From positions 831,907 to 895,906 of the forward strand of contig OY970230.1 of assembly GCA_963714095.1 (NCBI GenBank): a stretch of 64,000 nt of DNA. Direction: 5' to 3'. Positions within the stretch are counted from its first letter, which is position 1, and every line of letters starts with the position of its first letter. This document shows, piece by piece, positions 36,201-38,453 of the stretch. The notes beneath the pieces are model-generated. The model was not told where the DNA came from. It searched no databases and worked only from the letters and a program-made list of their open reading frames with translations. The translations under genes were made by a program, and so were the position numbers. The DNA is from Candidatus Gottesmanbacteria bacterium (lineage in GTDB: Bacteria; Patescibacteriota; Microgenomatia; UBA10105; UBA927).

Positions 36201-38453
36201 CGATTCTACGACTGCAACGTCCACCGCAGCAATCGTGTTGTACGGCTCGGCTGACCCAGCAGGTGGAACCGCAGGTAAAAAAGGCGATATCTTTATGGGG
36301 AATAATCTTCAGCTGGGCTGGAATCAGGGAGCAGCGCAGACAGATTCGATATACGGAGGTACGGATGATATACTTTATTTTGGGGCCACCGCACAAACGG
36401 CGGCTGTAAACCTCGGAGCATCAAGCGCAACAAGTACCGTCAATCTCGGGACTGGAGAAGGCGCCCAGACTATCAATATCGGGAGCGGCACGACGAATGC
36501 TAAAACCATTAATATCGGCACCGGCGCTGCAATGGCAAACGGGATCAATATCGGAGGAACCGGTGCCAACGTTATCGCGATCGGCAATACCCAAACCGCA
36601 GGATCCCATAAGTATCGGCGGAGCCGCCGCTACGAGTACAACAATAAACATAGGGGGAACTACGTCGTCAAACGGCACGATTACGATCGGTCAGGCTGCG
36701 GGTGGTCAATCTATCAATATAGGAACAACTGCCGGCACTGCCACACGTACTGTTAGTATCGGCAGCAGCCCGTCAGCAGGCACTGAGACGATTACCCTCG
36801 GAGGTACGCCTACCAGCACCGGTCTTCAGGTAATCAATGTCGGCGCCGGCGGCAACGTGGCGGTGAACGCGCGTATTGTTAATATCGGCAACGGATCTAT
36901 CAACACGAAAGTGCTTTTCTTCCCGCGCACGGCGAACGTCGGGAGTGAATTTAACTCAAACGGTCAATTTGCCATCGGATCAATGGGTACCGCCGGCACC
37001 ACCAACGGCCGTATCTGGATTTATGCCAGCAACACAATTTTCCGGTGGAATTCCGTCGGAAATTCCGCCGACTATTCCGAATATATTGCCCAGACTGAGC
37101 CTTCCGGCCCCGGCGACGTTATGGTCGTAGACTCCACAGCAACGCAAAGTGTGAGGCGTTACCACGGGCCGTACGAAGATAATATTTTAGGAGTCATAAC
37201 CACGACCGGTCTCGGATACAACAATGATTCCGACGCGCCGGACCATCACAATGACAATCCGGCTTGGGCAAACGTCGGTATGCTTGGCCAGGTATCCATT
37301 AAAGTGTCAAGCGAAAACGGAAGCATCCAGCCCGGTGACCGTTTGACGAGCTCCAGCCAGCCCGGCGTTGCCATGAAAGCCACACGGGCCGGACAGATCG
37401 TCGGGCGTGCGCTTGACAGTTGGTCAAATACAGATCCTACACAGGTTGGGATGATCAAAGCACTCATTTCACCGTCATACTACGATCCAGCTGAGGCGAC
37501 GGCGAGCGACTCGGATTTGCAAACACTCCGGCTTGAAGCGGCAAATTCAACGCCATACGTTGCACAGATTCCGTTTGCTAAAGCAGGGGCTGCTGAAGCC
37601 GCAAGCAACTTCGGCAAATATTCCATTCAGGGAATCGTCAGCAGCGCCGTGAAAGCGATGGGGGAGTTTACCAACCTTGTTGCTGCGAATTTCAAAGCGG
37701 GTGTGGTGCAAACCAACGAAGTGACGACCAATACGCTGACTGCCAATCACGGAGCGTTTGGTGACATCGCCGGAAGCCAGGCGGTCGTGGATTCTCTGTC
37801 AGTCGGTACGATTACGCCGGATGCAAGCGGGGCCGTTCATGTCCACTCGGGCGCGGACGGCAAGGTATCGATTCTGGATTCCAACCAGAACGAAGTTTTC
37901 TCGGTGGACGCGGCAGGGAACGGCTATTTTGCCAGGAACGATTACGGCGGATAAATTGAAAGTCAACCAAATAGAAGGATTGGATTTGTCTTCCTTATTC
38001 AATAGCGCAACACCAAGCTCTGTACCGGTGGCTACGTCTACGGCAAACCTGAGTATATTTGACTGGCAGGTGACATTTAACGATGTGGTCACGTTTGTGA
38101 AGGACGTCATCATTCAGGGTCAGTTGACGATAAATAATACGCTGAAGGTGTTAGGGGACATTTCAATATTCGGCCATATTACCGTGAATACTGATACGGC
38201 AGGCGTTGCGGTAATTCCGAGCTCCGCCACGAGTGTGGACGTGCCGTTTGAACAGCCGTTTGCGACTCCTCCGATTGTTACGATTTCATTGGTATTGCCG
38301 CAGGCGACTGACAGCGCATTTATGGCAGAAGGGGTGCAGGCGGCTGTCACGAACGTGACGACAACAGGATTTACCATTGTACTCAATACGCCGGTACCCA
38401 AAGACCTCACCTACAATTGGTTCGCCCTGGCGGTGAATAACAGGAAAAAATGA
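27257..38453 (+). CDS. Giant collagen-like triple-helix repeat surface fibre protein, about 3,730 aa if contiguous. As assembled it is interrupted by roughly 25 frameshifts and one in-frame stop after position 31100.
   Basis: ATG 27257 has SD AGGAGA 4 nt upstream; the ORF track's upstream GTG at 27227 is less likely to be the true start. Two N-terminal hydrophobic segments are present. The ORF stays open to 31210 and includes about 930 aa of GXY. The GXY frame then hops between all three forward frames (ORFs 31214.., 31596.., 32131..36756 and others). A non-collagenous C-terminal region follows (36100-37954, then frame 3 to the stop at 38453), ending ...[29 protein letters not shown]. Confidence 0.7.
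28320..36110 (+). repeat. Coding tandem repeat array of about 865 Gly-X-Y triplets, built from 108-nt and 117-nt higher-order units.
   Basis: Unit A encodes [36 protein letters not shown]. Unit B encodes [39 protein letters not shown]. Copies are degenerate at 28320-28900 and near-identical in the middle. There are no stop codons in any of the six frames. Confidence 0.9.

Follow-up and report, generated by a model that had tools for sequence, protein, structure and literature searches.

We found that positions 38193-38441 of a 64,000-nucleotide (nt) stretch of DNA from a Candidatus Gottesmanbacteria-like ultrasmall bacterium of the Patescibacteria, or candidate phyla radiation (CPR), encode a domain that genuinely belongs to the H-type lectin (PF09458) fold family. 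This stretch (GenBank assembly GCA_963714095.1, contig OY970230.1, positions 831,907 to 895,906) is called the window below. The domain is part of a single very large plus-strand gene at about 27257-38900, which after repair of indels encodes about 3,900 amino acids (aa) and whose product is a giant collagen-like surface fibre with the H-type-lectin-fold domain near its distal end. The identity and fold of the domain, the architecture of the gene and the artefactual nature of its frameshifts were established, and we infer that the chains trimerise, that the domain has a ligand and that the fibre serves as an adhesin, whose head may or may not be retained on the stalk.

Identity and predicted fold of the lectin domain

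The first-pass annotation of this DNA, made from the sequence alone, had claimed an H-type lectin domain here, and this claim was borne out. The Pfam profile H_lectin (PF09458) matches with E=5.4e-10 and 39.7 bits (gathering cutoff 24) at residues 99-162 of the translated segment, or window 38235-38426, and covers profile positions 2-66 of 67, which is well beyond chance. As a reference we used a contig of the European Nucleotide Archive (ENA), L022, which was found by cluster look-up, is about 99.6% identical and was aligned to window 30453-48908. It encodes the intact 1095-aa protein P0165, in which H_lectin is matched with E=4e-9 and 36.9 bits. Among nine relatives scanned, five reach 24 bits and two score 21-22 bits, and in the other two no H_lectin match was obtained at E<=0.01. 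The peptide on which the annotation was based is indeed present, in frame 0 of 37941-38450, as a string of 71 aa and not of about 95.

When a 49-sequence profile of the domain was compared with all chain sequences of the Protein Data Bank (PDB), the top five were discoidin II, three entries of Helix pomatia agglutinin (HPA) and Helix aspersa agglutinin (HAA), with SLL-2 just behind. E-values ranged overall from 0.013 to 0.43, those of discoidin II and HPA being marginal at 0.013-0.035. The comparison with HPA and discoidin II that the annotation had proposed as a check thereby revealed a shared core, and in the profile alignment the core motif of the window aligns residue by residue with HPA NITFASPYCRPPVVLLSI, then TGF. 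A phmmer search with the 172-aa tip against PDB sequences gave chance matches only. As such the lectin assignment is an ordinary one: PF09458 already takes in many bacterial and phage fibre proteins, and H-type lectin domains have been annotated before in bacterial and phage fibres (PMC3990757, PMC3094311).

An AlphaFold2 (AF2) model of the 170-aa segment, built from an input alignment of 9 sequences, was confident for residues 85-167 only, with a predicted local distance difference test (pLDDT) score of mostly 80-91, and there consists of six strands with a short helix in the third loop; residues 1-84 have a pLDDT <50. The modelled lectin domain is a six-stranded antiparallel beta-sandwich, as in HPA and discoidin. 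Foldseek against the PDB ranked the R2-pyocin fibre, the cyanophage Pam1 tailspike, SLL-2, HAA, discoidin II and HPA on top (E 3.6e-3 to 1e-2), with target-normalised template modelling (TM) scores of 0.52-0.56 for the small lectins. Structure prediction could have given another fold, and the predicted one agrees with HPA, discoidin and SLL-2, so that at the level of a model the H-type lectin assignment is confirmed. Judged from this model, the closest structures are the feet of phage and pyocin fibres together with the discoidins, and a 'discoidin-like foot' fold has previously been described for pyocin and phage fibres (PMC6363177). By analogy the lectin domains would form a homotrimer, as implied by the collagen-like Gly-X-Y region upstream.

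Gene architecture and assembly errors

The features of the fibre gene are listed below; indels are given relative to L022.

27257-28312 (+): N-terminal region, a non-collagen domain; start MTPPPGG at 27257; kept in the 1545-aa homologue of locus L001
27392-27457 (+): hydrophobic helix, presumed membrane anchor on the basis of hydrophobicity
28313-36114 (+): Thr-rich collagen-like Gly-X-Y region of about 2,600 residues (GPT, GAT and GST triplets), delimited by frame tracking
36112-36930 (+): Gly/Thr/Ile-rich repeats after the collagen (motifs TINIG, VNLG), from translation; one frame in P0165
36605 (+): extra C, breaking the frame in the post-collagen repeat region
37061-37489 (+): predicted phi29 gp12 / Peptidase_G2-type intramolecular chaperone domain (Foldseek, profile A5, Pfam in relatives)
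37070-37072 (+): Asp of the putative autocleavage site NSA/DYSEY, from alignment with 3gqh
37490-37933 (+): middle region, with low-confidence helices and then beta-hairpins in the AF2 model, end ...DAAGNGYFA
37932 (+): extra C, TTTGC(C)AGG, separating GNGYFA from GTITADKL
37935-38192 (+): neck before the lectin fold, conserved in relatives and of low confidence in the monomer model
38193-38441 (+): H-type-lectin-fold domain, six beta-strands plus a short helix in loop L3; Pfam match 38235-38426
38446 (+): missing G (1-nt deletion), making a false stop at 38451-38453
38450-38708 (+): Pro/Thr-rich linker, in frame 2 to about 38640 and in frame 0 after the extra C at 38642
38642 (+): extra C, shifting the frame within the Pro/Thr-rich linker
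38709-38897 (+): bacterial SH3_3 domain, the real C-terminal domain; true stop 38898-38900

The H-type lectin domain is subterminal and not the last domain of the protein. Its description as terminal was not confirmed: window frame 2 (38450-38640) and then frame 0 (from 38642) run on into the Pro/Thr-rich linker and SH3_3 domain that come after it. The Pfam SH3_3 profile (PF08239) reported window 38646-38897 with E=4.6e-12 and 46.4 bits against a cutoff of 27, and P0165 with E=2.9e-10; a profile match to the SH3 domains of an autolytic lysozyme, 4krt, was obtained as well. Close relatives run past NWFALAV into ...GRKIIGKS.DG... and then into a Pro/Thr-rich linker, which in P0003 and P0004 is followed by a bacterial SH3. 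In the near-identical P0165, whose linker contains ...TLNPTATPVPIPTPTPIQTVTPTPTPAAS..., as well as in P0003, P0004 and P0156, the region from the lectin domain to the downstream part is one open reading frame (ORF).

Upstream, the N-terminal region 27257-28312 had no significant Pfam match. The collagen region holds about 50 tandem units of 108 or 117 nt at 29978-35839 (Tandem Repeats Finder, TRF), and the collagen part of P0165 matches Pfam Collagen with E=3.9e-17. From the end of the collagen to the H-type lectin domain there are about 700 non-collagen residues. They include the middle region 37490-37933, which is conserved in P0156, P0157, P0159 and P0160.

On L022 the stretch from the last collagen repeats to SH3 is one ORF, that of P0165 (Pfam content Collagen, H_lectin and SH3_3), which reads through ...TQTAGSISIGG... 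and ...NNGRKIIGKSIDG... and ends in ...GTYVQVN. With the repeats set aside, 51 substitutions and about 21 short indels of one or two bases distinguish the window from L022 over 13 kb, and four of the indels, at 36605, 37932, 38446 and 38642, lie in the non-repeat 3' part of the fibre gene. The annotation had noted a frameshift at about 37925; the break in frame is real in the assembled sequence (the extra C at 37932) and proved to be an assembly artefact, one of many. Across this position P0165, P0156, P0159, P0160 and L003 all have GN(G/A)(Y/F)(F)A/K-GT(I/L)TADK(L/I) in one frame, and across the equivalent of 38446-38453 P0165 and P0001 read NNGRKIIGKS(I/V)DG. About 20 further changes of the Gly-X-Y reading frame were found in the collagen repeats at 31100-36100, which brings the fibre gene to about 24 frame disruptions altogether. 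Neighbouring genes carry about 15 indels, and the dockerin-like, PMT_2-like and spermine-synthase-like genes, broken by indels of 1-2 nt, are all intact in L022. Roughly every second indel alters the length of a homopolymer.

Because L022 keeps long ORFs in every affected gene, and few substitutions stand against many indels, we attribute the four frameshifts of the 3' part (36605, 37932, 38446, 38642), as well as the ones within the collagen repeats, on the basis of this sequence comparison, to consensus errors of the assembly. Frame-based inference is unreliable anywhere in the window, and observations elsewhere in it that build on frameshifts are to be discounted.

Two other origins of the breaks were considered and rejected. 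A slip in a homopolymer A-run behind the stop at 38451 was ruled out, as it is a G that the window lacks in the alignment with L022. The other, a frameshift that is programmed or conserved and would separate the lectin domain from the chaperone region, came up because locus L001 is likewise broken nearby; it was dismissed, since that break occupies a different position and the frame is uninterrupted in 15 of 16 related loci, in L003 and in P0165. Further indel sites are located 3' of the fibre gene (39184-39199, 39378, 39812, 40004, 40102, 40144, 40525, 40545) and at 46352, 46712-46716, 47860 and 48155. The same one-base insertion, CCAAC(A)GGTCC, occurs at an identical place in six collagen units (31178, 32550, 33104, 33568, 33677, 35256), and may reflect either an error made systematically in the consensus or duplication of a unit that is out of register.

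A chaperone-like domain with a putative cleavage site

In an AF2 model of 36902-37936, between the collagen and the lectin domain, a beta core is predicted with confidence (pLDDT 76-94), and the modelled 37061-37489 has the fold of the released C-terminal fragment of phi29 gp12. Foldseek matched this fragment (3gqh) with E=1.6e-3 and a target-normalised TM-score of 0.48, and pre-mature gp12 (3suc) with E=2.0e-3. The Pfam family Peptidase_G2 (PF11962) scores 15.1 bits in the window, below the threshold of 25, and in relatives 26.8 bits (P0013) and 22.8 bits (P0010), while P0157 has a precomputed PF11962 match. Profile A5 sets residue 1 of 3gqh (DFAEYFE) against DYSEYIA of the window (E=0.021); a further match of this profile is D4, the chaperone domain of tailspike Dpo31 (28nb, SDYAEYFE). 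The pattern expected of a cleavage site, with Asp at P1', Glu three residues on and a position at the start of the domain, is present, and of 10 aligned sequences with coverage here, 9 retain the AD..E motif. In gp12, as Xiang et al. reportedly found in 2009, the bond before Asp is cut autocatalytically and the fragment released, Asp and Glu being catalytic. A general autocleavage mechanism of intramolecular chaperones has been described (PMC4690869).

Cleavage at NSA/DYSEY, if it happens, would leave the lectin and SH3 domains on a piece of about 610 aa without a covalent link to the stalk. Of the earlier picture of a collagen stalk presenting a lectin head, the collagen-like stalk was indeed found upstream in the same gene; some 700 residues intervene, however, and the head may not stay attached.

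Other structural matches of 36902-37936 were capsid decoration or cement proteins of phages (Borrelia phage BB1, Pam3, HFTV1, TW1); as far as these models go, the gp12 chaperone fragment and these proteins appear to share a fold.

Relatives and distribution

Word-indexed homologue searches gave few relatives (5, 4 and 11), and a full HMMER scan was needed to estimate the size of the family. It returned 2,389 cluster representatives at E<=1e-3, of which 154 sequences were examined further. After the lectin domain these usually have 35-160 more residues. A chaperone-like region precedes the lectin in 56 of the 154 and an SH3 follows it in 27, which argues against a throw-away fragment.

At the level of loci, 16 related ones were collected from GTDB genomes, mostly labelled Candidatus Gottesmanbacteria or Patescibacteria; five are labelled 'uncultured Gammaproteobacteria' or 'Pseudomonadales', labels which we take to be mistaken. 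The lectin domain lies in one open frame that reads on into a Pro/Thr-rich linker at 15 of the 16 loci. Eleven of these 15 are open over at least 1,178 aa, most to the edge of the fetched DNA, and the other four end at a contig edge. Collagen is found upstream at 13 and SH3 downstream at 8 of the 16 loci. Apart from that of the window, the one broken copy is L001/L007, which stems from a related assembly of long-read style and has its break at another position. In L001 (OY969569.1, Candidatus Gottesmanbacteria MFD03899) the orthologous fibre gene at 5403-10621 has uninterrupted collagen in a 1545-aa ORF; a single break, probably one more assembly indel, separates the ...ADSIRANKIEGL... neck from the lectin domain. 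The linker is the last part of this gene, no SH3 coming after it, and SH3 is likewise absent from L002.

The closest NCBI relative is automatically named 'SH3 domain-containing protein'. For P0155, an exact look-up gave no encoding contig on record, and a limited literature search found no paper on this fibre family of Patescibacteria.

Genomic context

The fibre gene is flanked by a membrane protein with HTH_17 and dCache_1 upstream and a PMT_2-like transferase downstream, an arrangement that is syntenic in L001, L002 and L022. This synteny places the locus on the chromosome and not in a prophage. The repeats at 36112-36930 overlap with PHROG families of tail fibres and tail proteins, and a prophage tail fibre was considered and rejected: almost all PHROG matches concern the collagen part, and the flanking genes are syntenic and cellular. 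Fibre relatives were not found in IMG/VR by a pattern scan, which has limited sensitivity, nor in GenBank phages by tblastn.

The upstream gene (25284-27230, +) encodes a multi-pass membrane protein (dCache_1 E=9.1e-27), ends four bases into the fibre ORF, and is syntenic in L001 with 67% amino-acid identity. A role as sensor or regulator linked with the fibre gene is possible. The downstream membrane-protein gene of the PMT_2 type (protein O-mannosyltransferase-like; 39688-41845, +) always comes after the fibre gene, with counterparts at L001 10688-12764, L002 732-1385 and L022 9330-11484; the PMT_2 match is near threshold in the window and weak in L001. The window also contains many GT4 and DegT sugar-modification genes, e.g. 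at 20216-22565 and 48995-51157. Together with the PMT_2-like gene these suggest O-glycosylation of the Thr-rich collagen and of the Pro/Thr-rich linker.

On the minus strand, 38920-39650 contains dockerin-like ORF fragments (DANGDGSVNETDY...GDFNGDGVVDGADY). An intact 242-aa version in L022 (8563-9291), with a weak Dockerin_1 match, lies directly downstream of the fibre gene on the opposite strand.

Possible function

With moderate confidence we favour the view that the H-type lectin belongs to the C-terminal module of a giant collagen-stalk gene encoding what would be a trimeric, probably glycan-binding, long-range adhesin, in which the frameshifts are consensus errors. Three chains would trimerise and their lectin domains would make a trimer like that of discoidin or of a pyocin foot. 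Through their variable distal loops (L1, L3, L5) they would attach to a ligand, most probably a glycan, on the surface of a partner or host cell, and SH3_3 would add cell-wall binding. The fibre would then serve an ultrasmall, episymbiotic bacterium in adhesion over a long range. Across 153 homologous domains, column entropy is highest in L1 (2.68 bits) and L3 (2.62 bits), compared to 1.05-2.08 in the strands, a distribution consistent with a distal binding surface that is variable, like that of pyocin feet.

Several points weigh against this account. GalNAc specificity, as suggested initially, is unsupported. The GalNAc contacts of HPA are reportedly Asp26 and Gly24 in L1, Arg63 in L3, and Trp83, His84 and Tyr89 in L5 (Sanchez et al. 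in 2006), and the conserved contact residues of this set were not recovered. In profile alignments the window has Ala (FM-A-EG) opposite the GalNAc-contacting Arg of HPA and its counterpart in discoidin II, and L5 (NTPVPKD) is without Trp, His or Tyr. Part of the HPA binding site is located on loop L1, which has 22 residues there (PMC6363177 Table 2) and 5 in the model of the window domain. The loop alignments being uncertain, these differences weaken GalNAc specificity and not membership of the fold, and any ligand binding by the domain is to be understood as putative. Furthermore, the AF2 model derives from only 9 sequences and has a mean pLDDT of 55, due to the unmodelled N-terminal 84 residues. 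The helix at 27392-27457 is a presumed membrane anchor on its hydrophobicity alone, and the lectin and SH3 domains, lying C-terminal to the putative autocleavage site, might be lost from the mature fibre.

This last point is the core of an alternative that we hold to be unlikely, though it deserves more weight than the two discussed after it. Here the lectin fold is mainly a trimerisation and registration element of an auto-chaperone fragment, cut at NSA/DYSEY after folding of the stalk as in phi29 gp12; the lectin would then not be the tip of the mature fibre, and the fragment could be discarded or become a separate wall-bound lectin. It draws on the alignment by profile A5 with residue 1 of 3gqh and with the Dpo31 chaperone domain, on the Foldseek matches to 3gqh and 3suc, on Peptidase_G2 reaching the Pfam threshold in P0013, on the AD..E motif in nine of ten covering sequences, and on the more distant P0163 and P0164, in which the chaperone domain is the C-terminus, as in phage proteins. 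H-type lectins are moreover obligate trimers, and collagen helices usually require a terminal trimerisation domain. The window itself nevertheless remains below the Peptidase_G2 threshold and the PDB profile E-values are marginal (0.02), while a discarded fragment is unlikely to keep a lectin fold, a Pro/Thr-rich linker and SH3 across hundreds of relatives. Cleavage is also putative, and the P22-type C-terminal auto-chaperone is uncleaved (PMC4690869).

The H-type lectin fold might instead hold a protein or peptide partner, as in the minor pilin CofB with CofJ, which we think quite improbable. CofB has this fold, does not bind GalNAc and holds a peptide in the expected sugar site, so bacterial H-type lectin domains are able to bind peptides instead of sugars (PMC6048534); the canonical Arg that is not aligned here and the short L1 would suit such a role. 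However, no candidate partner gene was identified, the nearest structures are sugar-binding lectins and glycan-binding feet of phages and pyocins, and the adjoining SH3_3 is of a glycan (cell-wall) binding type. Least credible, and very improbable in our opinion, is a real pseudogene with genuine frameshifts, in which the lectin domain is not made. The sheer number of disruptions in one gene, about 24, would fit this, as would the recurrent 1-nt insertion in six repeat copies, possibly through duplication of an already broken unit. Yet the 3' part is an intact ORF of 1095 aa on the nearly identical contig, similar indels of 1-2 nt break neighbouring genes that are intact in L022, homopolymer lengths account for around half of the indels, and only 51 substitutions were counted in 13 kb, with no in-frame nonsense mutations noticed.

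Beyond the adhesin account, a broader scenario is put forward tentatively and seems to us doubtful. It holds that the gene represents a widespread, so far uncharacterised class of CPR fibres with a collagen stalk hundreds of nanometres long, assembled by a phage-type (phi29 gp12-like) self-cleaving chaperone, of which the C-terminal fragment, not being thrown away, (H-type-lectin trimer plus SH3b) would be the host-recognition head or a released host-binding factor of the episymbiont. Outside Saccharibacteria, little is understood of the way in which Patescibacteria locate hosts and stay attached to them, and the fibre offers a concrete, expressible candidate adhesin, being conserved and syntenic among Gottesmanbacteria, with metagenomic relatives numbering in the thousands. 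Its architecture is of moderate interest as a candidate CPR adhesin.

Comparison with known systems

The eukaryotic H-type lectins (HPA 2CCV, HAA, the C-terminal domain of discoidin I/II and octocoral SLL-2) are small and secreted or cytosolic, whereas the domain described here is part of a fibre of about 3,900 aa. Compared to HPA, L1 is far shorter and the Arg of the GalNAc site is not aligned, sugar binding here being putative, and in contrast to the eukaryotic lectins L3 has a short helix with the subfamily motif ATDSAF(L/M). The foot domains at the C-termini of the R-type pyocin, AP22 gp53, LKA1, phi297, Pam1 and Sf6 fibres or tailspikes are of phage or tailocin origin, while the present gene is chromosomal and syntenic in Gottesmanbacteria, has an N-terminal hydrophobic segment as presumed anchor, and encodes more domains after the foot. 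CofB and TcpB, type IVb minor pilins with a pilin scaffold and a peptide ligand, share only the fold with the fibre domain, with no further sequence relationship. The region 37061-37489 has its predicted fold and the D-x-x-E motif at its start in common with the fragment released from the phi29 gp12 pre-neck appendage; the chaperone of gp12 forms the C-terminus of that protein and is set free, whereas here some 470 more residues (neck, lectin, linker and SH3) follow and cleavage is putative.

A collagen-like trimeric stalk with a globular head, as proposed here, is also known from collectins, C1q, ficolins, BclA, Scl1/Scl2, Lcl and Pasteuria Pcl. BclA, Scl and Pasteuria Pcl are the nearest bacterial analogues of the stalk, and the Thr-rich triplets of GPT type resemble BclA; the NCBIfam Scl and Lcl models match the collagen part only, far below their cutoffs. 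The fibre differs from these collagen-type systems in having an H-type lectin instead of a C-type lectin, C1q or fibrinogen-like head, in a stalk that is an order of magnitude longer, and, compared to bacterial collagen-like proteins, in a hydrophobic N-terminal segment as presumed anchor instead of LPXTG or exosporium attachment. In collectins a C-type lectin directly follows the collagen and a coiled-coil neck, while here the head is an H_lectin and about 700 residues intervene, so that the comparison with collectins is a fair analogy and not a matter of membership.

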